Shown: in pieces, positions 13,994-31,528 of the stretch | How the letters are laid out: every line of letters starts with the position of its first letter | Position numbering within the stretch: position 1 is the first letter of the stretch | Assembly (NCBI RefSeq): GCF_001735745.1 | Contig: NZ_CP017260.1 | Span: 1,080,001 to 1,112,000, forward strand | From: Formosa sp. Hel1_33_131 | GTDB lineage: Bacteria; Bacteroidota; Bacteroidia; Flavobacteriales; Flavobacteriaceae | Reading direction: 5' to 3' | Length of the DNA: 32,000 bases | Notes under the pieces: generated by a model | Database searches by the model: none | Told to the model about the DNA's origin: nothing | Seen by the model: only the letters and a program-made list of their open reading frames with translations | Made by a program: the position numbers and the translations under genes

Positions 13994-14001
13994 CAAATGT
14001 A
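13994..14001 (-). promoter_or_regulatory. Only TAnnTTTG match in the susC upstream region
   Basis: The reverse complement is TACATTTG, 184 nt upstream of the susC ATG. A long leader would be required. Confidence 0.2.
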
Positions 14002-14039
14002 GTGGATTTGTATGGGTAAAAAAGCGAGCTGTAGGGTTA

Positions 14040-16844
14040 TTATATTTCTAAAATATAATTTGTTAAGCTAGATTCATGGGGTAAATCCATTTTTTTTCGC
14101 AAACGATATCGTTTTACCTCTACACTTCTCGGGGATATATTTAGCAGTGGCGCTATCTCTTTAGAGGATAGATTTAGTCGTAAGTAGGCGCACAAACGAA
14201 GGTCATTTGGGGTGAGTACTGGGTGCTTTTCTTTGATAAGTTTTAGAAAGTCTTTGTCCGCATTGTTAAAGGCTTCTTCAAATAGCTTCCAATCGTCTGT
14301 ATTGTTTAGATTTTTATCAATAATCCTGATTACCTTCTTGATATCCTGTTGATTATCTTTTTCCTTTAATTCACTTTTGATGCTATTCAAGAACTCGTTC
14401 TTTTTAATCAAACTCATTGTAGAGACTGCCAACTCTCGATTCTTACTTTCAATGTCAAGTTTCAGTTTCTCGTTGGTTAACTGCATGAATTTTTGAGAGG
14501 TTTCAAGTTCTTTGAGTGCAAGTTGTTCGTGAGATTTCTGAAGAAGTTGTTGTTGTTGTTTTCTGTAATACCGTTTGTATAGGTTATGGATTAGGATCCA
14601 TAAAATAATAAAAAAGATTACATAAAGAGTTATTGCAGCATTTGAAAGGTGCCAGGGGCGGTTGATAACAAAAGAATAGGAGGCGGTATTGAGAGTTTCG
14701 GAATTCCCTATTTTCCCTTTAACTTTAAACTCATAACTCCCAAAAGGCAGGTTTTCAAATACTTGTTGGGATTCAGCTTGCCAATCCGACCAAGAATTGG
14801 ACCACCCTATTAGCTTGTAAGAATATTTTTTACTGACTACATTGTCGTAGTGAGGAATGCTGTAATTAATATAAATATTATTGTTTTCGGAGTCTAAAAT
14901 CTTTGGATCTGTAGAGTTGAGTCGAAATTTATCTTCATTAATTTTACTGGCCTCAACAGAGTTGATTTTTAAATTATAAAGGTGATTTGGTTTTGGTGTG
15001 TCTGAATTAAAAATAAAATAACCATAAGCAGAGCCTAGAAGATACTCATCTGTCCCAATTTTTGTGAGGTTCTCGAAACCAGAAACAACCTTTTTAAAGT
15101 TTGATATCGCAACTGGAATGATTTCAACTTTTGGTGTTTGCGTAACACTTCCTGCACTAATGATTAAAATATTGTCATCTGCAAAGCACCATTTAAGTCC
15201 CTCAGAGTCCTTGACATCCATAATGGTGGTACGTGTTGAGTACTCTTTTAAGACTTCTTTGAAAGGCTCTGATTCAATGAAGGAATGATCTGTAGGATTG
15301 AATTTGTAAACATCTTCAGACGAGGTGTAATAATAGTTTTTAGAGAATTTTAGAAAGTTGGAGCCATTACCCTTGGTGATTGGAGTAATATTAGAAACTT
15401 TAGAGACCTCAGTTAAATCTTTGTTTAAAGTGAGCTCATATAAACCTCTTAATTCATGGTTCACATATATTTGATCTCCTATGTGTTGATAAAAACGACT
15501 TGAGATATCAAACCCTTTAATTTTATTCCTATAACGCCACCGCCCTTCCGTTTTCTCTAAAAGGCTTAAGCCGTTATAATTTCCTTGTAATATGATGTTT
15601 GGGTTCTCTTTAAGGAGTTTAAAGTCCCACGTTCCAAGGGATTGACCTATACTGTATTGTAGTTTTTGGTTTTTGATGAGTAAGGTTCCGCGGTCATGTC
15701 CACAGAAAATTTGGTTGTCAATAACCTTAAGATTCCACACTTGACCATTTGTACCCTCTATAAAAGTAAAGCCAGAGTTCTTGTCTCTCCGTTTATAAAA
15801 CAGTCCTTGATTTGTCCCTAAGTATAAATAATCTTCAAATAGCACAGAAGTATAGACGGTACCGATGGCTCCTTTTGTATCGTTACAAATAATAAACTGA
15901 GAGGACAGATTTATATGGCTAATTCCAATATCAAGCCCTAGCCATAAGTTATTTTGGTAGTCTTCAAAAACAGATAATACCGTATTATTACTGAGACCCT
16001 TCTCAAAGTTAAGATCATATTTAAGCATCCCGTTTGGACTTAGGTGGTACAGTCCGTTGGAAACAGTCCCTATAACAATACTGTTGTCACTTAACTTAGT
16101 GGTGCTGTATATTGTAAGTGAATTCAGGTCAACTTTAGGGTCTATTTTCCATGGGGTTAGTTTCTTGTTTTCTAGGAGATAAAACCCATTGGATGCCGTG
16201 ATAATTAATAATTGGTTATTAAGCTCAAATACGCCCACAAGGTTATTAGATGTCAACCTTACATCTTCACTAACAAGCTCAACATTTCCATCAATTATTT
16301 TATAAAATCCTTTATTTAGCTGGTTAAAAAACAAGACCCCTTCCACCTCAAATATATTTGAGATGACATGATCAGATTCTATAAAAGTTGTTTCTTTTGT
16401 GAGTTCGTTCACTAAATAAATCCTGGAAAGAGATTGAAAAATTAACCAATCATCTAATTTAATAATGTCCCAAAACTGTTCGTCTTCGTCTAACTCAATA
16501 CCTAATTGCTGTACTAAAGAGGTGTACTCTAAGATGCTTTTATTATTTCGTTTCCAAACACCAAAATCCATATAACTCCCTGTGTAAATTAAGTCGTCAA
16601 TTGCCTTTACCGATCTTACAATAGAGTTGTCTGGGACTGGATAAAGTTTCCAATTCATACCATCATACTCCAATAATCCGGAGTTATTGGCAAAATACAT
16701 GGTTTGATCCGAGGTCTGAGAAATACTCCAGTTTTGATTTTGAGCAGCATAGGCATCTGGATTATAAGCCATTACAGGAGGGTGCTCTTGGGCAGAAATC
16801 ACCAAAGAGGCTAATAAAACTAATATATACTTAATAATCCTCAT
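14040..16844 (-). CDS. One-component PUL regulator with the order periplasmic beta-propeller, Y_Y_Y domain, TM helix, coiled coil, LuxR-type HTH
   Basis: I chose the start MRIIKYILVLLASLVISAQ. The Y_Y_Y motif is YSYKLIGWSNSWSDW...GSYEFKVKG and the TM segment is ITLYVIFFIILWILI. The C-terminal LTPNDLRLCAYLRLNLSSKEIAPLLNISPRSVEVKRYRLRKKM is a LuxR/GerE HTH. Confidence 0.85.
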   Translation of the reverse strand: MRIIKYILVLLASLVISAQEHPPVMAYNPDAYAAQNQNWSISQTSDQTMYFANNSGLLEYDGMNWKLYPVPDNSIVRSVKAIDDLIYTGSYMDFGVWKRNNKSILEYTSLVQQLGIELDEDEQFWDIIKLDDWLIFQSLSRIYLVNELTKETTFIESDHVISNIFEVEGVLFFNQLNKGFYKIIDGNVELVSEDVRLTSNNLVGVFELNNQLLIITASNGFYLLENKKLTPWKIDPKVDLNSLTIYSTTKLSDNSIVIGTVSNGLYHLSPNGMLKYDLNFEKGLSNNTVLSVFEDYQNNLWLGLDIGISHINLSSQFIICNDTKGAIGTVYTSVLFEDYLYLGTNQGLFYKRRDKNSGFTFIEGTNGQVWNLKVIDNQIFCGHDRGTLLIKNQKLQYSIGQSLGTWDFKLLKENPNIILQGNYNGLSLLEKTEGRWRYRNKIKGFDISSRFYQHIGDQIYVNHELRGLYELTLNKDLTEVSKVSNITPITKGNGSNFLKFSKNYYYTSSEDVYKFNPTDHSFIESEPFKEVLKEYSTRTTIMDVKDSEGLKWCFADDNILIISAGSVTQTPKVEIIPVAISNFKKVVSGFENLTKIGTDEYLLGSAYGYFIFNSDTPKPNHLYNLKINSVEASKINEDKFRLNSTDPKILDSENNNIYINYSIPHYDNVVSKKYSYKLIGWSNSWSDWQAESQQVFENLPFGSYEFKVKGKIGNSETLNTASYSFVINRPWHLSNAAITLYVIFFIILWILIHNLYKRYYRKQQQQLLQKSHEQLALKELETSQKFMQLTNEKLKLDIESKNRELAVSTMSLIKKNEFLNSIKSELKEKDNQQDIKKVIRIIDKNLNNTDDWKLFEEAFNNADKDFLKLIKEKHPVLTPNDLRLCAYLRLNLSSKEIAPLLNISPRSVEVKRYRLRKKMDLPHESSLTNYILEI

Positions 16845-16956
16845 AATGATTCGAAAGGCACAAGGTAATGAAAATTTGAAATTTAAGCTAATAGCAACGA
16901 AGGATAACACTATAAAACCATCGGAGATGTCAATAGCGCTACTCTAAGAATCAAGA

Positions 16957-17718
16957 TTACTTAATGTTTAAAAAGGATACTAAATCCTCTTTTCTTCGTT
17001 TGGCAACGGGCAATATAAGATTGCCAATTAACTCGCAGTTACTGCCATCGGCATTATTGATGTTTACAATATACTTAAGGTTTATCAAGTATTTTTTATG
17101 GATTCTAAAAAAATACCTTGGAGCTAAAATCTTATCATACTCTCCAATGTTTTTAGAAACAAAAAAGGTTGTCTTGTCAATTAGATGAATTATAGTGTAT
17201 CTTCCATCTGATTCAAAGTATAAAATATCATCTATCTTAATGAAGTCGATTTTTTTTGTGGAAGGAATTGCAATAAAATTATAATCAGAAGTTTTGGCTT
17301 CAATAGAAATTTTGGCAGATTCTAATTGAGGGTTGGTCGTAAAGAGTTTGTTCTTAAGATTGTCTTCAAGTGTTTTTACTGTTGTCATCAAATCCTTTGG
17401 ATCAATTGGCTTTAGAAGAAAATCAATGGCATTAAATTTGAAGGCGGATACTGCATACTCCTGAAAAGCTGTTATAAACACCGCGGAATAATCCTCATAA
17501 TCTATACCTTCAAGCACATCGAACCCCGTGCCGTCTTGCATCACAATGTCTAAGAAAATAAGTTTGGGTTGTAAGTCGTTGATTGTAGTGATTGCACTCT
17601 CAACAGTAGTAGCGATTGCTATTACTTCAATTATAGGGCAATATTTATCTAAATAAATGTTTAATAATTCATTGTTTTTAATTTCGTCATCGACGAGTAC
17701 AGCACTGATTTTTGACAT
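16957..17718 (-). CDS. LytR/AlgR-family response regulator (REC + LytTR DNA-binding domain)
   Basis: 253 aa. The receiver domain reads AVLVDDE...IFLDIVMQDGTGFD. The C-terminal LytTR-like region reads IDDILYFESDGRYTIIHL...LAPRYFFRIHKKYLINL. Confidence 0.85.
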   Translation of the reverse strand: MSKISAVLVDDEIKNNELLNIYLDKYCPIIEVIAIATTVESAITTINDLQPKLIFLDIVMQDGTGFDVLEGIDYEDYSAVFITAFQEYAVSAFKFNAIDFLLKPIDPKDLMTTVKTLEDNLKNKLFTTNPQLESAKISIEAKTSDYNFIAIPSTKKIDFIKIDDILYFESDGRYTIIHLIDKTTFFVSKNIGEYDKILAPRYFFRIHKKYLINLKYIVNINNADGSNCELIGNLILPVAKRRKEDLVSFLNIK

Positions 17719-17955
17719 AATAAATTAAGATAAGAACGCGATTTAGTGACTCAAATAATACATAATGTATAACTACTCAAAGAACAATTAGTTAAAAATT
17801 TATTATACTCTAGATAAGTAGGTTACAATACAAAAATAGGGAAAATAACTTAAAAACTATTAAAAAAGCCTTGAAACTACTATAAAACACTATAATAAGG
17901 TGAATTCATTTGTTCTTAAAAAGTAATTGTGTAACTTTAGTTTTTGTTTAGCAAA

Positions 17956-19770
17956 ATGGATGATTTAATGAAAATTTTAAGATCAATTTGGGCAATAACA
18001 AGTATTAGCTTGTTAAGTGTGTGTACGAATTGGATAAATGCTCAGAAAGCCACTACAAGAGATGCGTTTATTGAAAAAATAAATGCATCTCTTGACAATC
18101 AAAACACTCAGAACTCTGATAGTATCTTCAATAAGCTTAGAAATGAGGCTTGGTCTTTAAAAGAAGATTCTCTTTTTGTAGATCTCACATTTCAGCAAAT
18201 AGAAAAAAACAAAGGCTCGGTGGATGTTTTGGAAGACCTGATGATTAAAGAGTACGAGTACTTAAAAAATCACCCTAGACTTCTCCTTCTTTGTTATCTC
18301 AATATGAGTGAATTCTATTTATCTCAATACAATTCATCAAAAGCCTCTATAGGTCTTAGTAAATATTATTCTAATCGCTATTTTGAAATTCTAAAAACAA
18401 TTCCTTTTAACGATAACGATATTCGATTGCATCAAAAACACAGACTACACTATTTGCAAAAAACACAAAATGATAGTCTGTTATATTACCTGAACACATA
18501 CGACCTCCCAAAACAAACAAAAAATTTAATATTGACACGATGGTATCGGTCTCAAAACAATCACAAAAAAGAACTGATTCATGCCAAAAAAAGTGAGCAT
18601 ACCCATGAACTTTTGGTTGCGTATCGAAATAACCTACAACTCTCTAAAGTGGACAGTCTATTCCCTATCCTCTTAGAGAAATTTAAAGGGAAAAACAGTT
18701 TCAACGAACATATTTTATACCTCAATATGGGACATCGCTATGCCTTAGAACGTCGCTTTGGCACAGCCGACAAGATGTACCTTAAAGCATTGAACTATTT
18801 TGAAGACAATAAAAAAATGTATCAACTCCATGAATCCTTGGAGGCAATTATTGATGTTAAAACACATAGTGGTGATATAAGTGCATTCAAATTTTACAAC
18901 ACGAAGTTAAGTTCCCTTAAACAACAGCAACACGATAAACAATTACTCGTAATTGAAAAGTATTTAAGTTTTGTGAAAGATGTTACAGACTTAGAGGCGA
19001 AGACAAAAAAGAAAGCTGATAAACTAGAAAAAGAACAATCTAAAAATGACCTCAAGTACCAAAAAACAATAACATCTGTTGGGCTTGCATTCTTCTTAGT
19101 GTTTTCGATTTTTATATTTTTTTATTTTCAAAGTGTAAAAGAAAGAGAGTCTTTGGAATATAAGAACGAAAAAATGAAAGTTGATGTATTGAGATCAAAG
19201 TTTAAACCTCACTTCACATTTAACGCATTATCTGTCATCAATTATTTTATCGCCAAAAAAGATATTGAAAGCGCTTCTAATGCACTTACAAAAATGGCGA
19301 CGCTGTTACGGTCTACACTTGATAATATGAGTAAAGATTTAGTATCCTATCAGTCCGAATATAATATCTGTAAGGATTATATGTATTTAGAGCTGTTACG
19401 GTTTTCAGATAGATTTGAGTGTAATATTATGGATCTTAACGACCCAATTATTAAGGGGTGGAAAGTCCCTCCTGGGATTATAGAGCCTTTTTTAGAAAAT
19501 TCTGTAAATCATGCCTTTAAGGGTGTGAAAAGTAAGGGATTAATTTCTCTAACACATCAAATAGAGAAAAACTGTTTAGTGATCTGTGTGAAAGACAATG
19601 GTGTGGGGATTGATACAGAAAAAATGTATTCTGAAAAATTACATGGAATGAAAATCACTAAAGACGTTATAAAAGCAACCTCAAAGCTTTACAAGACTCC
19701 CATAAAATTTGAAATAAAATCAGATGGCGGTACAGTTGTAACTCTTACTGTCCCTCTGTTAAAGTCATAA
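17956..19770 (+). CDS. Sensor histidine kinase, LytS/YehU-type (PF06580-like His_kinase + HATPase_c) with a large extracytoplasmic helical-repeat domain
   Basis: It has a signal/TM segment (ILRSIWAITSISLLSV), a roughly 350-aa helical-repeat (TPR-like) region and a TM segment (VGLAFFLVFSIFIFFYF). These are followed by LRSKFKPHFTFNALSVINYFI and the ATPase N/G boxes (ENSVNHAF, DNGVGID). The start is ATG at 17956 or 17968; the track ORF opens at TTG 17944. Confidence 0.8.
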   Translation: MDDLMKILRSIWAITSISLLSVCTNWINAQKATTRDAFIEKINASLDNQNTQNSDSIFNKLRNEAWSLKEDSLFVDLTFQQIEKNKGSVDVLEDLMIKEYEYLKNHPRLLLLCYLNMSEFYLSQYNSSKASIGLSKYYSNRYFEILKTIPFNDNDIRLHQKHRLHYLQKTQNDSLLYYLNTYDLPKQTKNLILTRWYRSQNNHKKELIHAKKSEHTHELLVAYRNNLQLSKVDSLFPILLEKFKGKNSFNEHILYLNMGHRYALERRFGTADKMYLKALNYFEDNKKMYQLHESLEAIIDVKTHSGDISAFKFYNTKLSSLKQQQHDKQLLVIEKYLSFVKDVTDLEAKTKKKADKLEKEQSKNDLKYQKTITSVGLAFFLVFSIFIFFYFQSVKERESLEYKNEKMKVDVLRSKFKPHFTFNALSVINYFIAKKDIESASNALTKMATLLRSTLDNMSKDLVSYQSEYNICKDYMYLELLRFSDRFECNIMDLNDPIIKGWKVPPGIIEPFLENSVNHAFKGVKSKGLISLTHQIEKNCLVICVKDNGVGIDTEKMYSEKLHGMKITKDVIKATSKLYKTPIKFEIKSDGGTVVTLTVPLLKS

Positions 19771-19807
19771 AAAAGCATTACACTAAATTTAGTGTAATGC
19801 TTTTTTT
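19769..19807. terminator. Bidirectional rho-independent terminator between convergent genes
   Basis: A perfect 26-nt palindrome gcattacactaaatttagtgtaatgc lies at 19775-19800, flanked by A5 on the left and T7 on the right. It starts right at the kinase stop codon. Confidence 0.8.
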
Positions 19808-19845
19808 ATGCGATTTGATTATTGTTTTTTAAGCTGTTCTATGTT

Positions 19846-20016
19846 TTAGTCGTCAAAAATCCCATCATTAGATGGTGGGGGCAATGATACGGCCTGCGAC
19901 TTTCTTGGGTTGAGAGCTATAAACGTTCCTATAGCGGTTAGTGCTGCATATTTCCCCATTTTAGAAAGGGCTTCTTTGCGAGTGATTTGGTTTTTATTAT
20001 TATTTGATTTCTTCAT
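19846..20016 (-). CDS. Untracked small ORF, 56 aa, predicted single-pass small membrane or secreted peptide
   Basis: My own translation is MKKSNNNKNQITRKEALSKMGKYAALTAIGTFIALNPRKSQAVSLPPPSNDGIFDD*. The N-terminus is basic, one hydrophobic span is present, and the tail is proline-rich and acidic. The ORF is below the track length cutoff. It fills an otherwise empty 313-bp gap and is followed by the strong terminator. Confidence 0.45.
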   Translation of the reverse strand: MKKSNNNKNQITRKEALSKMGKYAALTAIGTFIALNPRKSQAVSLPPPSNDGIFDD

Positions 20017-20083
20017 GAATTTGTAAGTTGAAATTTAGTGCGAAATATTTACATTTAAGCCTTTTACGTCTTAAAATGAGTCT

Positions 20084-21640
20084 TTATTTGATAACTAACT
20101 TGGTTGTTTTAGATTGGTGTTTATTGTTCAAGTTTGCAACATACACTCCCGAACTTACGTTAGACACATCAATCTCATGTTTTGTTTGAGAAGCTTCCAA
20201 TTGATGCGTTTGTATCACGCGGCCTCTTATATCATATAATATTAATGTCGAGTCATGCCTTAATTGACCCTGAACGATTAGTTTTTTTGTAGTAGCCGAT
20301 GAGAAAATCTCAACAGAGTTGAGTGCCGTGTAAGGGCTTGAAAAAGTGGATGAAGTTGTGCCTAAATAAAAACGTCCAATTCCGCTTAAGTCAGATGAAG
20401 GTATAAACGTATAATCGTTAGAGGTTAGTAACGTTTGAACGTTTCGCACTCTATCGTCTAAATAAAATCTCGTACCTGAAGGAACGTCTAAATCGTCGAT
20501 ACTAATCGTTGCTTCCTGACCTGCTGCAACATTCACCTCCAAAGGAATGGCATAATCCGTTGCTGTTAAATCACTAGTAGATAGCGCTTGTATGGCCAAA
20601 TTATAACCTTGAGAATTTTCTACTAAATGAGTTCCTATATCAGACCCTAAAGACCCTGCATCAAAGGTCACGTCTAAGCCGCGTGAACCATATGCATCAA
20701 TAAAGTAAAGTGACGTGTCATAAACATTAGCATCTTTGGTTAACTTTAATTTAAAAGATGAACGACTATTTACCTGACTTCCAGGGATAAAATTATCTTG
20801 TGCAGAAGTACTCACTGTTCTAGCTGATTTAGGAAAGTTGAATGTGCCTCCAGCAGCAGTGGATATAATTATAAACCCTTGTCCTGGAGTGATCAATTCC
20901 GTACTTGTAAGACTGTTTATTACTTTCCAAGTACTAGCACTTGCAGTTGCTGCCCCATCATACCCGTAAATAGCAGCATATGTTGGGTCAATGACGGCAC
21001 TAGCAGCACCCAATGCTGTTACTATCGCTCCCGCATTAATATGTGTAGTAAAAGGATTTCCAACGAGGTTACTTTCTTTGTATGTACCAGCCACATAAAC
21101 TCCAGGAGCATGAACAATAGTTATACCAACATCGGAAGTGCTTACAACCCCTTTGTAAGCCAATGTTTGCCCACCTATACTACCTGCACGATAGCCTTTG
21201 GCAGCCACTAACGGTGTGACATCTGCAGCTGCATACTCTACGTATACTCCATTTGCAGTATCGAATGGACCATACATTAGGTTAGAAGTAGTAATGGTTC
21301 CTGTAGCAATTTTCCCAGTATTTGCAGTCGCAAATGAGGCAAAGGTTTGACCACTTACTGGTGGGGAGACTAAATCCCTGGTGGCAGAAGAGCCTGTGAA
21401 ATGACGATACTCTGCAGTTCCTGTAGAAGACCCAACAACAAAAAGGTCAGAAAAATCATCGGACACTGAGTCCATGATAAGCTCACCATTAGAGTCAATA
21501 CCAACGTTACTTGACGCATGGACAAATGCTGTGGGGGAGATATACATCTGACCACCTGCAGCTACATTCAAATCTTGAGCGAAAGCTGACAGGCTAAAAA
21601 AGATTGCAAAGATTGATATTTGTAAAGTAGGTTTTTTCAT
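20084..21640 (-). CDS. Secreted protein of unknown function with a T9SS C-terminal sorting domain
   Basis: 518 aa. The signal peptide is ...SLSAFAQD. The C-terminal roughly 80 aa (LILYDIRGRVIQTHQL...SGVYVANLNNKHQSKTTKLVIK) match the Por_Secre_tail/type A CTD pattern. I did not recognise any catalytic motif. Confidence 0.75.
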   Translation of the reverse strand: MKKPTLQISIFAIFFSLSAFAQDLNVAAGGQMYISPTAFVHASSNVGIDSNGELIMDSVSDDFSDLFVVGSSTGTAEYRHFTGSSATRDLVSPPVSGQTFASFATANTGKIATGTITTSNLMYGPFDTANGVYVEYAAADVTPLVAAKGYRAGSIGGQTLAYKGVVSTSDVGITIVHAPGVYVAGTYKESNLVGNPFTTHINAGAIVTALGAASAVIDPTYAAIYGYDGAATASASTWKVINSLTSTELITPGQGFIIISTAAGGTFNFPKSARTVSTSAQDNFIPGSQVNSRSSFKLKLTKDANVYDTSLYFIDAYGSRGLDVTFDAGSLGSDIGTHLVENSQGYNLAIQALSTSDLTATDYAIPLEVNVAAGQEATISIDDLDVPSGTRFYLDDRVRNVQTLLTSNDYTFIPSSDLSGIGRFYLGTTSSTFSSPYTALNSVEIFSSATTKKLIVQGQLRHDSTLILYDIRGRVIQTHQLEASQTKHEIDVSNVSSGVYVANLNNKHQSKTTKLVIK

Positions 21641-21706
21641 GATATTTTTATTTAAGGTAATTCCGAACGCAAATTAAGTTTCTTAAAGGGATTAACCTAT
21701 AGCTAT

Positions 21707-21758
21707 GTAACAAACGGCTGTTTCGTGTAACAAACGGTTGATTTAATGTTATAATCGG
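21707..21758 (-). promoter_or_regulatory. Phased direct repeats, core GTAACAAACGG (gene-sense CCGTTTGTTAC), upstream of the T9SS cargo gene
   Basis: Two exact 11-mers lie at 21707-21717 and 21727-21737 (period 20). A degenerate third copy, gttataatcgg, lies at 21748-21758 (8/11, period 21). The repeats are 67-118 nt upstream of the ATG at 21640. Confidence 0.6.
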
Positions 21759-21777
21759 TCAAGTCTTCAAAGTGTTA

Positions 21778-22983
21778 TTATGTATTAAGCCTTCTTTTTG
21801 ATATCCATGATATGAGATAAACAAAAGATGATAAAAATAACATTACAAAAAAATGACTGGTAATATCCCAAGATCTTAATGCTAGGGCAATCCCTGTAAT
21901 TATAATCGTGTAAATCACGATTATAAGTGTGCTCTCAAAATGAGAGAAATTTAAATATGTAAGGTGGTGGTGTAAATGATTTCTGTCGGGTATAAAAGGG
22001 CTTTTGCCTTGCACCAATCGCACGCAAAATACACGAAGGGTATCCAATAACGGGAAACTTATTAAAGCTAAAACGATTACACTTGCATTGTTAATAAAGT
22101 AGCCTGTTCCTCCAACAAGGTTGGCTCCATTAGTGGCTGTAATGACCGAAAAAACGCCAAAAGCAATGACCACCCCTAAACTCATTGAGCCATTATCTCC
22201 TAAAAATAAACGCTTTTTGAAATTAAATATTAAAAATGAGGTTAATGCCCCAGAGTAACAAAACATAATTACGGACTGAATCACTAAATCATTTAAAAAG
22301 AAAAATATACCAAAGCATAGGGTGCTAATTAAACCTACAGACGCTGACAAACCATCAATACCATCAATTAGATTAAAAGCATTCACGACGATTACAAATA
22401 CAAATACAGAAAAAACGTAACTAAAAACAGTAGGCAGTTCATAAATTCCAAAAAGCCCATCAAAATTATCAATTCGTATTTCACATGAAATGATTACAAA
22501 AAGAGCTGTAATGATTTGAAAAATTACTTTTTCTAAAGGGCTTACTTCAAATATATCGTCTTTAAGTCCAAAAAATACCATCAGTGAAACAGCACTACAC
22601 AAACCAAAAACTATTTTAAAATCTATATCAATACTAGGGTAGCTGTATAAAAGTAAGCTTGTGAGGGACAATGCGAAAACAACGCTCACAAATACACTAA
22701 CCCCTCCCAAAATAGGTGTCGATTTTATATGTTTTTTTCTTAAATCAGGATGGTCCACTAATTGAAATCTGTGTGCAAATCGAATCGCTTGAGGGATCAA
22801 CCATTGGGCTGTAAAAAAAGCAATTCCAAACACTAAAACAAACAAATAGATATTTGGAGTTACACTTGTTGATTTTAGAAATATTGGATGTGAAAACAAT
22901 AGGTCATTGATCCAAATTCTTGTACTAAATTCCGAAAGCATAAATAAGGTAAAAGTTTCAGTCATATTTAAAACAGTTAACAA
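21778..22983 (-). CDS. Polyprenyl-phosphate sugar-1-phosphate transferase, MraY/WecA (GT4) family
   Basis: This is a polytopic membrane protein with DHPDLRKKH...PILGG, NAFNLIDGIDGL and GDNGS motifs. The true start may be an internal Met (MTETF or MLSEF). Confidence 0.75.
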   Translation of the reverse strand: MLTVLNMTETFTLFMLSEFSTRIWINDLLFSHPIFLKSTSVTPNIYLFVLVFGIAFFTAQWLIPQAIRFAHRFQLVDHPDLRKKHIKSTPILGGVSVFVSVVFALSLTSLLLYSYPSIDIDFKIVFGLCSAVSLMVFFGLKDDIFEVSPLEKVIFQIITALFVIISCEIRIDNFDGLFGIYELPTVFSYVFSVFVFVIVVNAFNLIDGIDGLSASVGLISTLCFGIFFFLNDLVIQSVIMFCYSGALTSFLIFNFKKRLFLGDNGSMSLGVVIAFGVFSVITATNGANLVGGTGYFINNASVIVLALISFPLLDTLRVFCVRLVQGKSPFIPDRNHLHHHLTYLNFSHFESTLIIVIYTIIITGIALALRSWDITSHFFVMLFLSSFVYLISWISKRRLNT

Positions 22984-23094
22984 TTAGTAATAACATGTTT
23001 TAGGACGCTACAAAAATCTTCTTGTTAAGCTGTTAGACTCCTGTAGAGTTCATGAATCCACAATCTTTTAAAAAAGAGGTGGAGATCATTTTAT

Positions 23095-24438
23095 TTATTT
23101 TGTTCTAATAATTTCTACCCGTCTGTTAAGGCGTCTTCCTTCTCCTGTTAAATTTGAAGCCACCTGTCTAGTTTCTCCGAACCCTTCGGCAATGAGGTTT
23201 TCTGAGGGGATGCCACTACTTATTAGATAGTTGCGAACCGCATTCGCTCTTGTTTGAGACAAACGCTTGTTAGAATCATACCCTCCGGAACTATCTGTAT
23301 GTCCTTCTATCTTAAACTGAGCTTCTGGATGTTGTTTCATCATTTCAACAACTTTAATTAAAACAGGGTAGGATTCTTGTCTGAAATTAGAGTTTCCTGA
23401 ATTAAATAATATTCCTTTAGACACAATATTTAAATTTGTTTTTGTCGAGCCAATCTCTATTTCTTCGTAAGGGCAACCGTTATTAGACTCTACTCCTGGA
23501 ACATTTGGACATTTATCCGCTACATCTACGATGCCGTCATTATCACTATCAAGTAAAGGGCATCCATTGTTTGTTGGCAAGCCTTTGATTTTTGGACATT
23601 TATCTGCTGAATCTAAAACAGAATCTCCATCTGTGTCAGCTTCCATTAAAACTTCAGGACAACCGTTATCGGTTCCATATGCTTCAGGACATTTATCCAT
23701 AGCATCAACTACGCCATCTCCGTCGCTATCAGCTTCTTCTGGGCATCCATTGTTTTGTGCAACCCCAGATACATTAGGACAATCATCCATTTTATTTCTG
23801 ACACCATCATTGTCATCATCCTTATCTCTGCTAGCAAATCGATACATTAAAGATGTAGAGTATTGAAAATGATTGGAGTTATATTCCTCTTTATTTAACG
23901 TCCATTTCCCTGTCCCATTTAGATTGAGGCCAAATTGATCCGAAAACCAAATATTAACACCTGGTCCAACATTTAAAGTCATTCCAGATTGATCTGCTTG
24001 CGAGACTCTTCCAACTCCACCATGAAGATAGAGTTCTAACCAATCATTGCGATCGAACCAACCTCCAAAGGATTGATTGTAATAGTATTTCAAATCCAAA
24101 TCTATCGCTGAATATTTGACATCAGAGGGAATAATTGCCCCATCTATTCTTCCTTTGTTCGCTTTCCATTTATTGTTACTCCAAGCGACAGATAGACTTA
24201 AGGAGTTACTGAATCGATACTCTAGTTCAATATTGAAATTTTCAGAAAAGGCCATTTCATCAAAGCTGCTTAAAAACTCAAAAGGATTATATTTTCCTGT
24301 ACTATCGACTAAATTGAGTCCTAGTTTTAAAAGAAGCCCTTTGTTCGTCTTATTTATAGAGTCCGTGGATATAGATTCTTGGGCTTGTGCTGATACAAGT
24401 CCTCCGATAAAAAATAAAAGTAGTGCAAGTTTTTTCAT
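23095..24438 (-). CDS. OmpA-family outer-membrane protein with thrombospondin type 3 calcium-binding repeats
   Basis: 447 aa with a signal peptide and an N-terminal barrel-like region. It has repeated DxDxDGxxDxxDxCP units (DSDGDGVVDAMDKCP, DTDGDSVLDSADKCP, DSDNDGIVDVADKCP). The C-terminal OmpA domain reads GHTDSSG...NRRVEI. Confidence 0.85.
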   Translation of the reverse strand: MKKLALLLFFIGGLVSAQAQESISTDSINKTNKGLLLKLGLNLVDSTGKYNPFEFLSSFDEMAFSENFNIELEYRFSNSLSLSVAWSNNKWKANKGRIDGAIIPSDVKYSAIDLDLKYYYNQSFGGWFDRNDWLELYLHGGVGRVSQADQSGMTLNVGPGVNIWFSDQFGLNLNGTGKWTLNKEEYNSNHFQYSTSLMYRFASRDKDDDNDGVRNKMDDCPNVSGVAQNNGCPEEADSDGDGVVDAMDKCPEAYGTDNGCPEVLMEADTDGDSVLDSADKCPKIKGLPTNNGCPLLDSDNDGIVDVADKCPNVPGVESNNGCPYEEIEIGSTKTNLNIVSKGILFNSGNSNFRQESYPVLIKVVEMMKQHPEAQFKIEGHTDSSGGYDSNKRLSQTRANAVRNYLISSGIPSENLIAEGFGETRQVASNLTGEGRRLNRRVEIIRTK

Positions 24439-24545
24439 GCTGAATTTGGGGTTTATATTATGTCTTGCCTTGTTTTAAAAAGCAATTTCATTTCATGGTT
24501 TTACAAACAAAGAAAGCAAGCTTAAACGAAAGATACTAGCTTAAT

Positions 24546-24596
24546 GTAACAAACGGCTATTTGACGTAATAAACGGCTGTTTGACGTAACAAACGG
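24546..24596 (-). promoter_or_regulatory. Three phased direct repeats with the same core (GTAACAAACGG / GTAATAAACGG / GTAACAAACGG), period exactly 20 bp
   Basis: The copies lie at 24546-24556, 24566-24576 and 24586-24596. The full gene-sense 20-mers ccgtttgttacgtcaaacag and ccgtttattacgtcaaatag share 18/20. The repeats are 108-158 nt upstream of the OmpA ATG at 24438 and 177 nt or more upstream of the divergent alkB. Confidence 0.6.
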
Positions 24597-24750
24597 TATA
24601 ATTAAGGCATTGCGTTTGAAGTATAAAAATCGTTAATACTAAAATAAAAACACTTCAAAGTCAATATATTACACACAACAACTCATTTCTGCACAAACTA
24701 TATGCTAGAACTGGAAATTTTGAAGATGTATCAGAGAGCAACTCTTAATT

Positions 24751-24758
24751 TATTTTTG
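24751..24758 (+). promoter_or_regulatory. -7 box match (TATTTTTG) upstream of alkB
   Basis: It matches TAnnTTTG and ends 14 nt before the ATG at 24773. Confidence 0.3.
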
Positions 24759-24772
24759 TATATCTTTAAGTG

Positions 24773-25816
24773 ATGAGAAATTTAAAGTATCTTTTTGCTT
24801 ATACAGTACCACTTTCGGCGTTCATCTCATTTGAATCCATGGGGCTAGGAACCTACACTTCCGTTATTTACGCTTTCATAATACTCCCTTTTCTCGACCT
24901 CATTACTGGAAAAGGATCTGAAAATATATCCAAAGAAAAAGCGAATAACAAAAAAACAAGCTGGGTTTTTGATGTGATGTTGTATTTAAATCTACCCATT
25001 GTTTTTGGTCTTTTGTGGCTTGTTTTTTCAAAAATTCAAACACAAGAATACGCCGTTTATGAACTCATTGGATTGGGCCTCTCCGCAGGAATTTTATTGG
25101 CAACCAACGCCATTAATGTGGCGCACGAACTAGGACACAGAACACCTTACTTTGAGCGATTTATGGGAAAACTCCTATACATGCCCTGCTTGTATATGCA
25201 TTTTTATATAGAGCACAACTTTGGTCATCATCTGAATGTGGCGACTCCAAACGACGGCGCTACAGCAAAATACAACCAGACCGTATTTTCGTTTTGGGTC
25301 ACCTCTGTGACAAAGCAATACGTAGATGCTTGGAACTGTCAAATAAAACTTTTAAAAACTCAAAATCGCCCATTCTTATCTGTGAAAAATGACATGCTTT
25401 GGTATCATTTGATTCAACCCACCTATATATTTGGAGTGTTCTATATCTTTTCATTTGATGCGATGCTATTTGCCATCGCTGTTGGAGTGGTGTCTTTTCT
25501 GTTTTTAGAGAGCATCAATTATATTGAGCATTACGGATTGAGACGCTTTAAAACGCCTTCTGGACGGTACGAACGCGTGCAACCGCAGCATTCATGGAAT
25601 TCTAACTTTAAAATTGGAAGAATTGTGTTGTATGAATTGACAAGGCATAGCGACCACCACTTTAAGTCCTCCAAAAAATACCAACTGCTAAACAGTTATG
25701 ACCAAAGTCCAACTTTACCGCTGGGCTACCCCGCTTCTATTCTCTTAAGTTTTATCCCACCACTTTGGTTTAAAATCATGAATCCACGAGTACCAGAAGA
25801 AATGAAGAAGAACTAA
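24773..25816 (+). CDS. alkB: Alkane 1-monooxygenase / membrane fatty-acid-desaturase-like di-iron hydroxylase
   Basis: Four histidine boxes are present in AlkB order: HELGHR, EHNFGHH, NYIEHYGL and RHSDHH. Several TM segments are present. I prefer the ATG at 24773 over the GTG at 24770. Confidence 0.85.
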   Translation: MRNLKYLFAYTVPLSAFISFESMGLGTYTSVIYAFIILPFLDLITGKGSENISKEKANNKKTSWVFDVMLYLNLPIVFGLLWLVFSKIQTQEYAVYELIGLGLSAGILLATNAINVAHELGHRTPYFERFMGKLLYMPCLYMHFYIEHNFGHHLNVATPNDGATAKYNQTVFSFWVTSVTKQYVDAWNCQIKLLKTQNRPFLSVKNDMLWYHLIQPTYIFGVFYIFSFDAMLFAIAVGVVSFLFLESINYIEHYGLRRFKTPSGRYERVQPQHSWNSNFKIGRIVLYELTRHSDHHFKSSKKYQLLNSYDQSPTLPLGYPASILLSFIPPLWFKIMNPRVPEEMKKN

Positions 25817-27976: not shown

Positions 27977-29452
27977 CTATTTAATTTTGAGCACTCCTTG
28001 ATCACTCTCCATAAAGGCATTACTCTGCTGTAATACAGATTCCATACCACCCATGTCTTCTCCTAAAAGCGTATGACTAAAAGCCTGTGCTCTATTGAGC
28101 ATGCGTATATAAACAGCGGCTTCTTGATCTCTGCTCAGCCGCCTCAAACCGCCTAAATAGTCCTCTCGATAGACCGTAGGTATAATTATTTTCGTTTGTG
28201 CTGCGCAGGCCAATTCTGCATTCATCATCACGCGAGCCAGTCTGCCGTTACCATCTAAAAACGGATGCACTTCACTGATGACAAACATCATATAGACCGC
28301 TTTCGCAAAAGGATGCGTTAGCGCCTGATAATAATCAAAACTTTTATGAAGCGTACCAACAACCAATTCCATGTCTACAAATGATGTATTACCAGCACGA
28401 TTGTTCTTGTCTTTAAACTTTCCTGGTTTCTTATCGTCTCTAGCACTTAATAAAGTTTGATGTCTGTATTTTAGAATGTCAATGAACTCTTCTTTTGAAC
28501 TTGGAACAATTTTCATTTCTCTAGGGTTGGAAACCAATTGATAGGTTCCTAAAACATCATGCGAATCTTCATTTCTGGCTGGCAAGGGTTGTTGCGTTGC
28601 AATAACCTGTTTTGCTTCTTCAATTTCAAAAACAGTACCCTCAATATAATTTGAGAAATAACTTTCATAAAACGCAAAATTACGATACGCTCCAGTAGTG
28701 CTGTTTTGCTCCTCTAAATTCTTGAATTCTTGTTGTTGTAATTCTCTAAACAAGTATTCAAATAACGCTATTCGATTTGAATCATAGGGTTGCCCATAAG
28801 CTCTTGCAGTTGCAACAGGAGACTTTAATATGTCAGATGGTTTGGTCGTTAGTAATGCACTAATTAGTTGGTTGAGTTTTTTAAATTCCTTTTGCATTCC
28901 AATTTCTTCTGAAATCGTTCTTGCTCTATCTCTTACTTTATTCAATTCATCTTCTCCATTAACACGTATAATCTGTTCTAATTTTTCTTCTATTTGAGGA
29001 AATGGAAGTGTTTTAGAATCTGACCCAGGTCGTTTTGAGGTTTGTAAATTTTCAAGTAATGCACGCTCTCTTTGAGAAACCATCAAACTTCCTGAAAATA
29101 AGTGATCCCCTTCAATAGCAGTCCAACCCTCTATAAAACGAATCGTTACGCCGGGAAGCTTTACTTTTTTTGTGTATTTGTAGGTTACAAATAATTGCCC
29201 TGTAGCCGTTGGTTTAAACTCAAATGCAGATCGATGACTTAATATAGATCCTGGATATTGATTTCCGAGAATGGAGAAAATGTTTCGCTGAATAATGTTT
29301 TCTGAGGTATCTTCAAAATTAGAAGTATAAATTTTTGAAGCGAGTTTTCTAATCTTACCCTCTTTTTTTAACTTAGATATCTGTCTTGAAATATTTGAAT
29401 CGCTAGATCCGTAAATGATTTCTTGGAGATGTATTTGACTGTTTTTTTCCAT
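27977..29452 (-). CDS. Class II Fic (AMPylase-type) protein with an N-terminal AbiEi-antitoxin-like winged-helix domain
   Basis: 491 aa. The canonical Fic motif HPFLDGNGRLAR matches HxFx(D/E)GNGRxxR. The in-cis inhibitory helix motif SNYIEG matches (S/T)xxxE(G/N). The N-terminus ISRQISKLKKEGKIRKLASKIYTS ... PGSILSHRSAFEF resembles AbiEi (G.l.rl.rGlY ... avis..SAl). Confidence 0.75.
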   Translation of the reverse strand: MEKNSQIHLQEIIYGSSDSNISRQISKLKKEGKIRKLASKIYTSNFEDTSENIIQRNIFSILGNQYPGSILSHRSAFEFKPTATGQLFVTYKYTKKVKLPGVTIRFIEGWTAIEGDHLFSGSLMVSQRERALLENLQTSKRPGSDSKTLPFPQIEEKLEQIIRVNGEDELNKVRDRARTISEEIGMQKEFKKLNQLISALLTTKPSDILKSPVATARAYGQPYDSNRIALFEYLFRELQQQEFKNLEEQNSTTGAYRNFAFYESYFSNYIEGTVFEIEEAKQVIATQQPLPARNEDSHDVLGTYQLVSNPREMKIVPSSKEEFIDILKYRHQTLLSARDDKKPGKFKDKNNRAGNTSFVDMELVVGTLHKSFDYYQALTHPFAKAVYMMFVISEVHPFLDGNGRLARVMMNAELACAAQTKIIIPTVYREDYLGGLRRLSRDQEAAVYIRMLNRAQAFSHTLLGEDMGGMESVLQQSNAFMESDQGVLKIK

Positions 29453-29679
29453 TACAACGACTTAACTCAACAAATTTGATAACTTTTTTCCAATATAGCG
29501 CTATTTTTTACAAATAATTTCCATTATAGGGAAATGCAAATTTCCTAATATAAGTTCAATTTCGATAGATTTTCTCCAATATGACTGAGTTGAAAAAGTT
29601 CAGGTTTTTCAACAATAGATCTACTTAGCTATTTCAAATCATAGAAGCGCGTGGAAATAAAAGATTAAAAAAAAACGAC

Positions 29680-29967
29680 TTAGCGCGTTTTGGCTAATGT
29701 ATCACAAAGTGCCTCTAAATTATCCATTTCGCCCCTTATCGTATCTATAATCTCTTTAGGACTTTTATCTCCTCTGACGGGTTTAAATAAGTCCATTACC
29801 TCTATACCTAAAGTATCCGCAAACTTACCGAGCATTTCAAAACTAGGTGTTTGAGAACCAATAATAATGCGATTAATGCTACCCCTTGACATACCTACTT
29901 CAATCCCAAACCCCTCATACGTATAGCCTTTCTTTTTAATTTGTTCTTTGATGTTTAAAAAATCCAT
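29680..29967 (-). CDS. XRE-family helix-turn-helix transcriptional regulator
   Basis: I chose the start MDFLNIKEQIKKKGYTYEGFGIEVGMSRGSINRIIIGSQTPSFEMLGKFADTLGIEV, a typical HTH_3. The track ORF extends 11 codons further upstream. Confidence 0.8.
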   Translation of the reverse strand: MDFLNIKEQIKKKGYTYEGFGIEVGMSRGSINRIIIGSQTPSFEMLGKFADTLGIEVMDLFKPVRGDKSPKEIIDTIRGEMDNLEALCDTLAKTR

Positions 29968-30038
29968 GAATAACGTTTTTAAGTTTAAGCAAATATACAA
30001 ATTACGTCACTAAACAAATAAAACGTACCATATTGTTT

Positions 30039-30057
30039 GTAATTGTGCCTAATTACA
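30039..30057. promoter_or_regulatory. Candidate operator: perfect inverted repeat TGTAATT-N6-AATTACA in the XRE/repeat-protein divergent intergenic region
   Basis: The sequence tgtaattgtgcctaattaca is centred in the 140-bp divergent region. Related half-site-like sequences lie at 29997-30005 (acaaattac) and 30062-30068 (atttgta). Outer imperfect arms are cgtcact (30004-30010) and agtgacg (30076-30082). Confidence 0.4.
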
Positions 30058-30107
30058 GTACATTTGTAGTCATAAAGTGACGCAATAGAAATCAAAATCT
30101 AAAAACC

Positions 30108-30587
30108 ATGAAACCCCAAACCGCCAAACAACTTACAGATGCCAATCAGAAAGCCCTAAAAGAGGGGAAACCAGTGCCCTACACCAAACAGCAGCACGCC
30201 GCCGCCAAAGGTTGCGACCCCGATGCTAAAAGGTATTGGAACTTTTTTTTAAACGGCAGGGAAGCCTACACCAAAAAAGAATATGCCAATACCAAAGGAT
30301 GTGATGCCCTAGCCGTAATCATATGGAATCGGCTTTTACCAGATGCAGAACCATTCAGCAAACAGGAATACAGCAACACCTATGGCTTGAGTGCTAAGGA
30401 CTTCATTTTATGGAACGAATGCCTGCCAGATGCCGAACCATTCACCAAACAAGAATACAACATCACCTATGGTTTTAGTGCTAACAACTTAACATTGTGG
30501 AACGAATGCCTACCAAATGCCGAACCATTCACCAAGGGTGAAATAAACGAATTGATTAAAGCAAATGACAACGAACACGCTACATAA
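30108..30587 (+). CDS. Hypothetical protein built from four to five tandem 29-aa repeats
   Basis: 159 aa. The repeat units follow the pattern (A/P)EP(F/Y)(T/S)K(Q/K)EY.N..G......WN..LP. The underlying DNA period is 87 bp, and 30339-30425 matches 30426-30512 at 73/87 by hand count. I recognise no known family. Confidence 0.6.
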   Translation: MKPQTAKQLTDANQKALKEGKPVPYTKQQHAAAKGCDPDAKRYWNFFLNGREAYTKKEYANTKGCDALAVIIWNRLLPDAEPFSKQEYSNTYGLSAKDFILWNECLPDAEPFTKQEYNITYGFSANNLTLWNECLPNAEPFTKGEINELIKANDNEHAT

Positions 30588-30727
30588 AATCACATTTGAT
30601 ATAGCGTTTGATTTATGTGAATGGAGACATCTAGGCGTAAAAAAATAATTAGAATCCTATTTTAATAGTATATTTGGATATATCAAAATTTAGTATTACA
30701 ATTTCTGAAGAATTAAATAATTCATAA

Positions 30728-31528
30728 ATGAATTCTCTTTTAAAATTATATGAAACGTATTTAGACCTAAAAAAAGAGGATGATTTTGATTTTGACAAAT
30801 TCAATCAATTTGCGATTGTTCATCACTCAAACTCAATTGAAGGATCTACACTTAGTAAGGAAGAAACTTATCTATTATTAAGCGAAAATTTAACCCCTAA
30901 AAATAAACCCTTAGAGCATACGTTGATGGCTATTGATCATTATGCAGCTTTAAAATACGTGATTGGTTTAGCAGCGTCTAAAACAGAACTGTCCGATGTT
31001 ATTATTAGAAAAATAGCATCCTTAATAATGGATAAAACAGGCTCGGAAATATCGTCTATGGCAGGTAATTTTGATTCCTCAAAGGGGGATTACAGAAAAG
31101 TGACAGTGAGAGCGGGCAATACGACGTTTATGGATTACCAAAAAGTTCCAGAAAAAGTTAATGAGTTATTAAACTATATTAATGACACTATTAATACAGT
31201 AAAAGGGTTTCAACAAATCAATGAATTAGCTTTTGACGCCCACTTTCAGATGGTTTCAATTCATCCATTTGCGGATGGAAATGGAAGACTCAGTCGGCTT
31301 TTGATGAACTATGTACAGCACTACCATAAAATTCCGTTAACAGCGATCTATTTAGAAAACAAATCAGACTATTTTACGGCCTTAGAAGACACTCGAAATC
31401 AGAAAGACATTACTATTTTCAGGAAATTTATGTTTGATCAAACAACTAAAAATCTATTAGAAAAAATAGAGGAACTCTCTCAGAAACAAGTCTCAAAAAA
31501 GGGGAAAGGAATGAATTTTCTTTTTTAA
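30728..31528 (+). CDS. Class II Fic family protein (short form)
   Basis: 266 aa. The Fic motif is HPFADGNGRLSR and the N-terminal inhibitory motif SNSIEG matches (S/T)xxxE(G/N). Confidence 0.85.
   Translation: MNSLLKLYETYLDLKKEDDFDFDKFNQFAIVHHSNSIEGSTLSKEETYLLLSENLTPKNKPLEHTLMAIDHYAALKYVIGLAASKTELSDVIIRKIASLIMDKTGSEISSMAGNFDSSKGDYRKVTVRAGNTTFMDYQKVPEKVNELLNYINDTINTVKGFQQINELAFDAHFQMVSIHPFADGNGRLSRLLMNYVQHYHKIPLTAIYLENKSDYFTALEDTRNQKDITIFRKFMFDQTTKNLLEKIEELSQKQVSKKGKGMNFLF

Follow-up and report, generated by a model that had tools for sequence, protein, structure and literature searches.

Three-unit direct-repeat arrays at two operons of Formosa sp. Hel1_33_131: probable activator sites of a flavobacterial regulon, with an adjacent LytTR-type regulator as candidate binder

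The window, by which we mean the whole 32,000-nt stretch of the Formosa sp. Hel1_33_131 genome that was analyzed, carries two minus-strand operons which are preceded by repeat arrays (Table 1). The first operon starts with the gene for a T9SS cargo protein, which is followed by a 56-aa ORF. This ORF is conserved in L065 (93%) and L024 (63%) and did not match any family (Pfam and other family models). Its position beside a LytTR system recalls that of peptide-signal genes. We considered it as an Agr/Com-like peptide signal and rejected this because it is absent from the syntenic loci at 65–69% regulator identity and is thus not a core part. The hairpin beyond this ORF is likely a bidirectional terminator common to the kinase gene and the cargo operon. 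The second operon had been taken as one gene (21778–24438) in an initial reading of the sequence alone (hereafter, the sequence-only reading) but consists of two, for an OmpA-family protein and a WecA-like glycosyltransferase.

The gene coding for the Y_Y_Y/LuxR regulator is adjoined by SusC, SusD, PKD, GH16, and GH3 genes (Pfam), a cluster which looks like a laminarin-type polysaccharide utilization locus (PUL). The histidine kinase has about 350 residues ahead of its single hydrophobic segment (approximately residues 373–399). That region lacks a Pfam match and is probably a periplasmic sensor region. Fic/DOC-domain genes (27977–29452 and 30728–31528) and a small Xre-type HTH gene (29680–30000) occupy the region 27977–31528 and look like an accessory or toxin-antitoxin-like islet unrelated to the arrays.

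Table 1. Coordinates of features in the window and of array-associated small RNAs in other genomes. Promoter boxes were identified by conservation; start sites are predicted.
Feature	Position	Strand	Remarks
Y_Y_Y/Reg_prop protein with LuxR-type HTH	14040–16910	-	Pfam
LytTR-family response regulator (receiver + LytTR)	16957–17718	-	PF04397 1.2e-16, PF00072 5.7e-15; best models BtsR, LytR
LytS/YehU-type histidine kinase	17944–19770	+	PF06580 and PF02518 (HATPase_c)
Hairpin flanked by A and T runs	19771–19809	.	read from sequence
56-aa ORF (MKKSNNNKNQITRKEALSKMGKYAALTAIGTF...)	19846–20016	-	directly after cargo gene, before shared terminator; probably co-transcribed
T9SS cargo gene, 518 aa, Por_Secre_tail C-terminal domain	20084–21640	-	PF18962 4.5e-11; TIGR04183; first gene behind array
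Cargo -7 box-like TTAATTTG	21670–21677	-	7/8 vs. TAnnTTTG; predicted start near 21665
TTTAAG, cargo promoter	21682–21687	-	spacer between -33 and -7
Cargo -33-like TAG (+8 to +10 after proximal unit)	21697–21699	-	position-specific conservation
Cargo proximal unit CCGTTTGTTAC	21707–21717	-	predicted about -53 to -43
Cargo middle unit CCGTTTGTTAC	21727–21737	-	predicted about -73 to -63
Cargo distal unit CCGATTATAAC	21748–21758	-	8/11; predicted about -94 to -83
WecA-like glycosyltransferase family 4 gene	21778–22983	-	downstream of OmpA gene
OmpA-family outer-membrane protein with thrombospondin type 3 repeats	23095–24438	-	first gene of second operon
OmpA -7 box-like TTTCTTTG	24508–24515	-	7/8 vs. 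TAnnTTTG; predicted start near 24503
TTTAAG, OmpA promoter	24521–24526	-	spacer between -33 and -7
OmpA -33-like TAG	24536–24538	-
OmpA proximal unit CCGTTTGTTAC	24546–24556	-
OmpA middle unit CCGTTTATTAC	24566–24576	-
OmpA distal unit CCGTTTGTTAC	24586–24596	-
Exact copies, read as GTAACAAACGG	21707, 21727, 24546, 24586	+
One-mismatch copy, read as GTAATAAACGG	24566	+
Degenerate copy, read as GTTATAATCGG	21748–21758	+	8/11 match, 21-nt period
First small RNA (other genomes)	L077:10895–10975; L009:5703–5785; L016, L028, L029, L033, L042 (x3), L049 (x2), L057 (x3), L068, L079, and others
Second small RNA (other genomes)	L039:495–607; L025, L061, L071, L003, L004, L040, L055, L076

The 11-mer CCGTTTGTTAC (gene sense) has four exact copies in the window, all of them upstream of the two minus-strand operons. 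From the base composition (GC 36.5%), the expectation for both strands together (64 kb) is approximately 0.01 exact copies. A position weight matrix (PWM) built solely from the arrays of other genomes gave pair scores of 33–45 at both window arrays, compared to a maximum of 6.9 over 20 shuffles of the window. The repeats are thus not due to chance, as the sequence-only reading had argued. When the whole window was scanned with the PWM, a third array was not found.

Three units are present at each of the two loci, 20–21 bp apart. Rechecking of the window positions confirmed the coordinates, the 20- and 21-nt periods, and the 8/11 third copy which had been described for the cargo promoter. A third unit had been described for that locus only; the OmpA promoter also has three. 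At the cargo promoter, the best pair of units has a PWM array score of 41.5, which increases to 55.5 for the triple that includes the degenerate distal unit; this unit is kept as CCGATTATGAC in L065. The string said to be common to both proximal units stands as agCCGTTTGTTACAT; its preceding triplet does not, since the second locus has “tag” instead of “cag.” In gene sense, the cargo upstream region reads CCGATTATAAC-attaaatcaa-CCGTTTGTTAC-acgaaacag-CCGTTTGTTAC-atagctataggttaatccc-TTTAAG-aaac-TTAATTTG-...ATG, and that of the OmpA gene reads CCGTTTGTTAC-gtcaaacag-CCGTTTATTAC-gtcaaatag-CCGTTTGTTAC-attaagctagtatctttcg-TTTAAG-cttgc-TTTCTTTG-...ATG.

The GTDB representative genomes were scanned with the pattern CCGTTTRTTAC-N9/10-CCGTTTRTTAC. 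This returned 76 loci, with about 0.5 expected by chance (calculated). Approximately 55 of these belong to the Flavobacteriaceae (Formosa, Tenacibaculum, Polaribacter, and many uncultured lineages), often with several loci per genome. We excluded the remaining loci, most of which represent simple tandem repeats from unrelated phyla (L006, L036, L056, and L070 are plain tandem repeats). Arrays were found at about 58 other promoters, mostly from Flavobacteriaceae, in the same fixed register to the sigma-A -7 box. Among the 60 arrays counted (58 from other genomes and the two from the window), 44 have three units, and the period is 20 bp in 88 cases and 21 bp in 20 cases. Array orientation is always toward a gene or a terminated small RNA.

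The window is 84–88% identical to an uncultured Formosa MAG (L065/L060) in which both arrays are kept. Arrays are also present at both orthologous promoters in L024, where the two array-driven genes have about 56–62% protein identity. Overall, the cargo and OmpA orthologs of L065, L060, L024, and L030 have kept arrays at their promoters, down to about 56–62% protein identity, and OmpA orthologs with an array occur in L060, L024, L030, L016, L073, L077–79, and L027. The two arrays of the window represent the same three-unit repeat as that of a putative regulon across marine Flavobacteriaceae. This upholds two proposals of the sequence-only reading: a shared activator-type promoter design is borne out by the same three-unit arrays at a fixed distance to the -7 box at about 58 other Flavobacteriaceae promoters, and assignment of the two operons to one regulon by the retention of the arrays at orthologous promoters of both. 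In our view, it is highly probable that the arrays serve as activator sites and belong to one common regulon. We infer activation rather than repression.

A freshwater metagenome contig carries a four-unit array (L101:330–385, minus strand) with the variant core CCACTTATTAC/CCATTTATTAC and a period of 20–21. A LytTR regulator with 48% identity is encoded at a distance of 3.6 kb. Judged from this variant, the strict pattern may not cover the whole motif family. In the searchable literature, the motif strings gave only an unrelated primer-type match, and a published study of such sites was not found in that on LytTR in Flavobacteria or on T9SS.

The promoter anatomy was derived from 48 nonredundant promoters which were aligned on the proximal unit and converted to an information profile. 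Information is strong over each 11-mer and moderate in the spacer (GTCAAATGG-like), with A/T at +1/+2. Downstream of the proximal unit, C-T-(A/T)-(G/T) is found at +7 to +10, followed by a stretch with almost no information (+11 to +30) and then by TAnnTTTG at +31 to +38 (T41 A30 n n T45 T47 T37 G28 of 48 promoters). T(T/A)(G/T) occupies +8 to +10 in 49 of the 58 other promoters, and T is found at +8 in 53 of them. The proximal core thus ends 7 nt before a -33-like T(T/A)G, and the TAnnTTTG -7 box follows 19–20 nt further. The flavobacterial sigma-A box TAnnTTTG occupies -12 to -5 in Flavobacterium (PMC9723704); on this numbering, T(T/A)G is at -35 to -33. From the predicted starts, leaders of 25 nt (from 21665, cargo) and 65 nt (from 24503, OmpA) are predicted. 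In both promoters of the window, TAG is found where TTG would be expected. This would represent a weak -33 element, which fits activator dependence, as a degenerate -33 is expected if an activator compensates for it. A scan of 19600–24800 for E. coli-type promoters and terminators was discarded as uninformative for Bacteroidetes; the sole “terminator” within an array was self-pairing of the repeats.

More than half of the arrays elsewhere drive two small-RNA families. The first small RNA (about 75–80 nt) starts exactly at the predicted +1 in 24 paralogous promoters of other genomes, which supports, indirectly, the predicted start sites. The transcript is made up of the 5′ hairpin GTAAT...ATTAC, the invariant AAGTTAAATTGGTTAAT, and a terminator hairpin which is rich in GC, shows compensatory changes, and has a U tract. 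The core was found in 25 exact copies, spread over 20 loci and with up to three in tandem. These are located either in the interval separating the LytTR and Y_Y_Y/LuxR regulator genes or ahead of the gene for a 234-aa secreted protein. A second terminated transcript of about 110 nt, with the core CCTTTTTTGCC...ATACCTAC, is found behind nine further arrays. In L039, it runs toward the 3′ end of a convergent ZIP-like transporter gene. These small RNAs show that the arrays precede real transcription units, in the orientation that we assume.

Neither a small RNA nor a target of the small-RNA core was found in the window. Rfam 15 did not return a match at gathering thresholds for the window and nine related loci; in E-value mode, both small RNAs gave terminator-driven noise only. 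The small-RNA core strings are absent from the searchable literature. Only 46 nt (16911–16956) separate the LytTR regulator and Y_Y_Y/LuxR genes in the window, and the same is true for L065, while in other genera this interval measures 400–700 nt and contains the small RNA together with one or two arrays. The Formosa-like lineage has thus lost this copy of array and small RNA there.

In L077 (6352–10856), the module consisting of the OmpA, kinase, and regulator genes is flanked by two arrays in the same orientation. The module is missing in L068, L028, L029, L033, and L008, where a single array has hybrid-looking flanks. These flanks are consistent with array-to-array recombination. A different deletion (7.4 kb) is seen in L074 (2873–3190), where the OmpA leader is fused to the last 46 codons of the regulator gene; it puts an array in front of the Y_Y_Y/LuxR gene.

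Members of the putative regulon in related genomes include OmpA/TSP3 proteins, several T9SS-CTD cargo families (among them a GH19 chitinase), the 234-aa secreted protein (with weak, sub-threshold TPR matches), “VGIGT” surface proteins, one SusC, the Y_Y_Y/LuxR regulator gene (behind the first small RNA), and the two small RNAs. Nearly all of the protein products have signal peptides.

The LytTR regulator and its PF06580 kinase are encoded 2.4 kb from the cargo array. Published LytTR operators consist of 9–11-nt repeats with 11–13-nt spacers (PMC4847170) and are placed 4–11 bp upstream of the -35 element (PMC6193735). The arrays agree with this geometry, having an 11-nt core at 20/21 bp, or equivalently the 9-nt core CCGTTTRTT with an 11–12-nt spacer. 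They also agree in placement, as judged from the 7 nt between the proximal core and T(T/A)G (boxes by conservation), and in that a LytTR regulator and a partner kinase are encoded with the sites. The 9-nt core CCGTTTGTT is identical in 8 of 9 positions to the AlgR site algD-RB3 (CCGTTTGTC; PMC4064291). The block of array-preceded OmpA gene, kinase, regulator, and array is conserved at 65–69% regulator identity, with regulator and arrays being syntenic in L016, L073, L077–79, and L085–90 (about 10 syntenic loci with both). In Draconibacterium sp., which belongs to a different class, a three-unit array (L041:6240–6290, minus strand; two copies of CCGTTTATTAC plus CCGTTTATAAA) starts 8 nt after the stop codon of a Y_Y_Y + PF06580 kinase gene. 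That array is followed by about 230 nt of noncoding sequence which ends in a terminator hairpin. The Y_Y_Y/LuxR regulator of the block, by contrast, has another conserved element before its expected target susC (see below). Taken together, we consider the LytTR regulator (16957–17718) the best candidate binder, which would read the arrays with moderate probability.

More distant homologs of the regulator provide weak support. Neither arrays nor other repeats were found near homologs with 44%, 42%, and 49% identity (L080/81, L083, L084). A 45%-identical regulator from Winogradskyella (L082) has significant arrays nearby, but an 80% relative has retained just one unit. Metagenomes provided 36 loci with relatives; 35 of these lack an array, and in the single array locus the distance is 3.6 kb. 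The intact arrays of the five genomes which lack the OmpA-kinase-regulator module at this locus, and of L074, also speak against the assignment. A phmmer comparison of the regulator to PDB matched the receiver domain alone, so that mapping onto the AgrA contact residues was not obtained. In the window, the PWM scan did not detect an array in the intergenic region between regulator and kinase genes (17719–17943), and autoregulation is thus not seen here. Positive autoregulation is common, not universal, among LytTR systems. Three units with 9–10-nt spacers are unlike the textbook repeat pair. The unit junctions AAA(T/C)GG|CCGTTT are near-palindromic and would also fit a dimeric helix-turn-helix protein.

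The arrays might be activator sites which are read by a regulator encoded elsewhere, either of the AraC/XylS type or another LytTR paralog, with adjacency merely reflecting synteny. AraC/XylS-type dimers read direct repeats with a period of about 21 bp abutting the -35 element. In addition, the arrays are spread over many contigs per genome, and several genomes have intact arrays and lack the kinase-regulator module at the syntenic locus: the OmpA-kinase-regulator module is missing there in L008, L028, L029, L033, and L068, and only the last 46 codons of the regulator are left in L074. Adjacency discriminates poorly, as the LytTR, YYY-LuxR, and TetR genes near arrays are all part of one syntenic block. 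On the other hand, an AraC-type gene (HTH_18/HTH_AraC) was not found among the scanned ORFs of the window, the repeat core resembles known LytTR sites, and the array beside a PF06580 kinase in Draconibacterium is an independent case. We thus regard a regulator encoded elsewhere as rather unlikely.

The same block contains the Y_Y_Y/LuxR regulator (14040–16910), which could bind the arrays, with dimers possibly occupying the near-palindromic junctions of the units, and would be autoregulated where an array precedes its gene. Homologs are found near arrays in nine loci, and the array precedes the gene in seven of them (L016, L028, L029, L033, L068, L074, L077), including L074, where the deletion again puts an array in front of the gene. 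Its HTH is 86% conserved across genera, compared to 50–58% for the sensor part. However, in most such loci it is a terminated small RNA which is driven by the array, and the gene follows 400–600 nt further; in the window and in L065, the gene lacks an array. Its expected target, the susC upstream region, has ACCCATACA-N3/4-CCnCTACA (window 13998–14017) and no array, and a homolog was not seen near the arrays of Draconibacterium (L041) and Winogradskyella (L082). Binding of the arrays by this protein is thus improbable, even more so than by a regulator encoded elsewhere.

The element in front of susC, ACCCATACAAATCCACTACA (CCATACA-N3/4-CCnCTACA; 13998–14017, minus strand), is located between the stop codon of the Y_Y_Y/LuxR gene (14040) and susC (13810) and is shared by all eight sequences upstream of susC that were aligned. 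It may serve the PUL regulator as an operator and differs from the arrays. A TetR-family gene, which is divergent from an array in nine genomes, was also considered as a source of the binder. Neither the window nor the Formosa-like loci contain this gene, and its proximity was hence attributed to synteny.

The hexamer TTTAAG had been highlighted in the sequence-only reading, which considered its conserved spacing as evidence for a shared design. The identical 19-nt offset after the proximal 11-mer is correct for both loci, and in only about 2% of shuffles do the two downstream regions (58 nt each) agree in register over 6 or more consecutive nt, a much weaker coincidence than that of the repeats. 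TTTAAG might itself be a functional promoter or factor-binding hexamer of both promoters. However, it is found exactly only in L065 (84%-identical ortholog), and 57 of the 58 other arrays lack it at that position, so that it does not qualify as a conserved hexamer. It occupies +20 to +25 after the proximal unit (predicted -23 to -18), where information is near zero across the 48 promoters, and thus falls between -33 and -7. An element in that interval is not known from flavobacterial sigma-A promoters. The orthologous promoters do not keep the repeat-to-TTTAAG spacing beyond L065: the counterparts are decayed in L060 (CTTAAG), L074 (CTTAGG), and L005 (ACTAAG), and the hexamer is absent from L024 (TTATTC/CTAATC), with a decay that corresponds to the rate of neutral sequence. 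The elements which keep spacing are instead T(T/A)(G/T) at +8 to +10 and TAnnTTTG at +31 to +38. The offset of TTTAAG is constant because the whole promoter is rigid, not because the hexamer is an element. On present evidence, TTTAAG appears to be incidental and not a promoter element, and a functional role is very unlikely.

That the repeats lack a function and represent chance, a small mobile element, or the remnant of a tandem repeat, for which the plain tandem repeats among the nonflavobacterial pattern matches might be quoted (L006, L036, L056, L070), can practically be dismissed, given the fixed register of the arrays to the -33/-7 boxes, their conservation across genera at orthologous and paralogous promoters with differing flanks, and their orientation, which is always toward a gene or a terminated small RNA.

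If the LytTR regulator reads the arrays, the following mechanism can be proposed. Each array would be the upstream activator site of a Bacteroidetes sigma-A promoter, with three direct 20-bp units at about -94 to -43, each consisting of the 11-nt core CCGTTTRTTAC and a semi-conserved spacer of 9–10 nt. The kinase (17944–19770) would sense a probably periplasmic signal and phosphorylate the adjacent response regulator. The regulator would oligomerize on the three units, all on one helix face, and would recruit or stabilize RNA polymerase at the weak -33 element. Expression of the T9SS cargo gene, of the small ORF behind it, and of the OmpA/WecA operon would thereby be switched on. The arrays of related genomes also drive the two small-RNA families, other secreted proteins, and a PUL regulator gene.

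Few types of regulator are as numerous in Bacteroidota as the LytTR/LytS-type two-component systems. A defined operator or regulon for any LytTR/LytS system from Bacteroidota was not found in the searchable literature, and the small-RNA-centered regulon outside the window is apparently undescribed. As a tentative synthesis, the arrays could define an undescribed LytTR regulon of marine Flavobacteriaceae with two multicopy Qrr/Rsm-like small-RNA families as main outputs, wired with an OmpA-type envelope protein, a T9SS cargo, and a laminarin-type PUL regulator; the flanking direct arrays may in addition be recombination sites which repeatedly delete the kinase-regulator module in natural populations. 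If the LytTR assignment is right, a single rule (three CCGTTTRTTAC units, 20-bp spacing, 7 nt upstream of -33) would provide a testable handle and would predict the regulon in many marine flavobacteria. Its predicted members would be outer-membrane and T9SS-secreted proteins, a polysaccharide-utilization regulator, and two new small-RNA families. The rule would also locate promoters and probable start sites for annotation in a phylum where E. coli-type scans are useless.

The arrays can be compared to several known systems. With respect to small-RNA output, they resemble LuxO-Qrr1–5 and GacA-RsmX/Y/Z in that arrays in related genomes drive small RNAs which are multicopy, end in a terminator, and have an invariant single-stranded core; one of the copies adjoins the regulator gene. 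This is an analogy only: the regulator family (LytTR), the sigma factor, and the phylum differ, and the small RNAs are absent from the window. The AlgR sites of Pseudomonas aeruginosa (consensus CCGTTCGTC) resemble the arrays not only in algD-RB3 (see above) but also in the consensus, with 7 of 9 positions of CCGTTTGTT being identical. Three AlgR sites are needed at algD (PMC4064291), which parallels the three units of the arrays. However, the AlgR sites are scattered (-470, -394, -45) and of mixed orientation, not tandem-phased, and the regulators are distant LytTR relatives.

In architecture, the arrays parallel LytTR operators (AgrA P2/P3, ComE, PlnC/PlnD, VirR, YpdB at yhjX, BtsR at yjiY, HdrR/BrsR). 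These share 9–11-nt direct repeats with a 20–22-bp period (PMC4847170), a location a few bp ahead of the -35-type element in promoters which depend on an activator (PMC6193735), and a cognate LytS/YehU-type kinase and LytTR regulator encoded close by. The arrays differ in having three units rather than two (44 of 60 arrays), mostly with a 20-bp period (11 + 9), and in being attached to a Bacteroidetes -33/-7 promoter. In the window, the regulator and kinase genes are not preceded by an array, and binding is putative. With the Bacteroidetes sigma-A promoter (-33 TTG/-7 TAnnTTTG), they share TAnnTTTG at a fixed distance and T(T/A)G about 20 nt upstream of it (PMC9723704), while the -33 element is degenerate here (TAG at both window promoters). 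The working principle would be that of a LytTR-type direct-repeat operator combined with a Bacteroidetes -33/-7 promoter.
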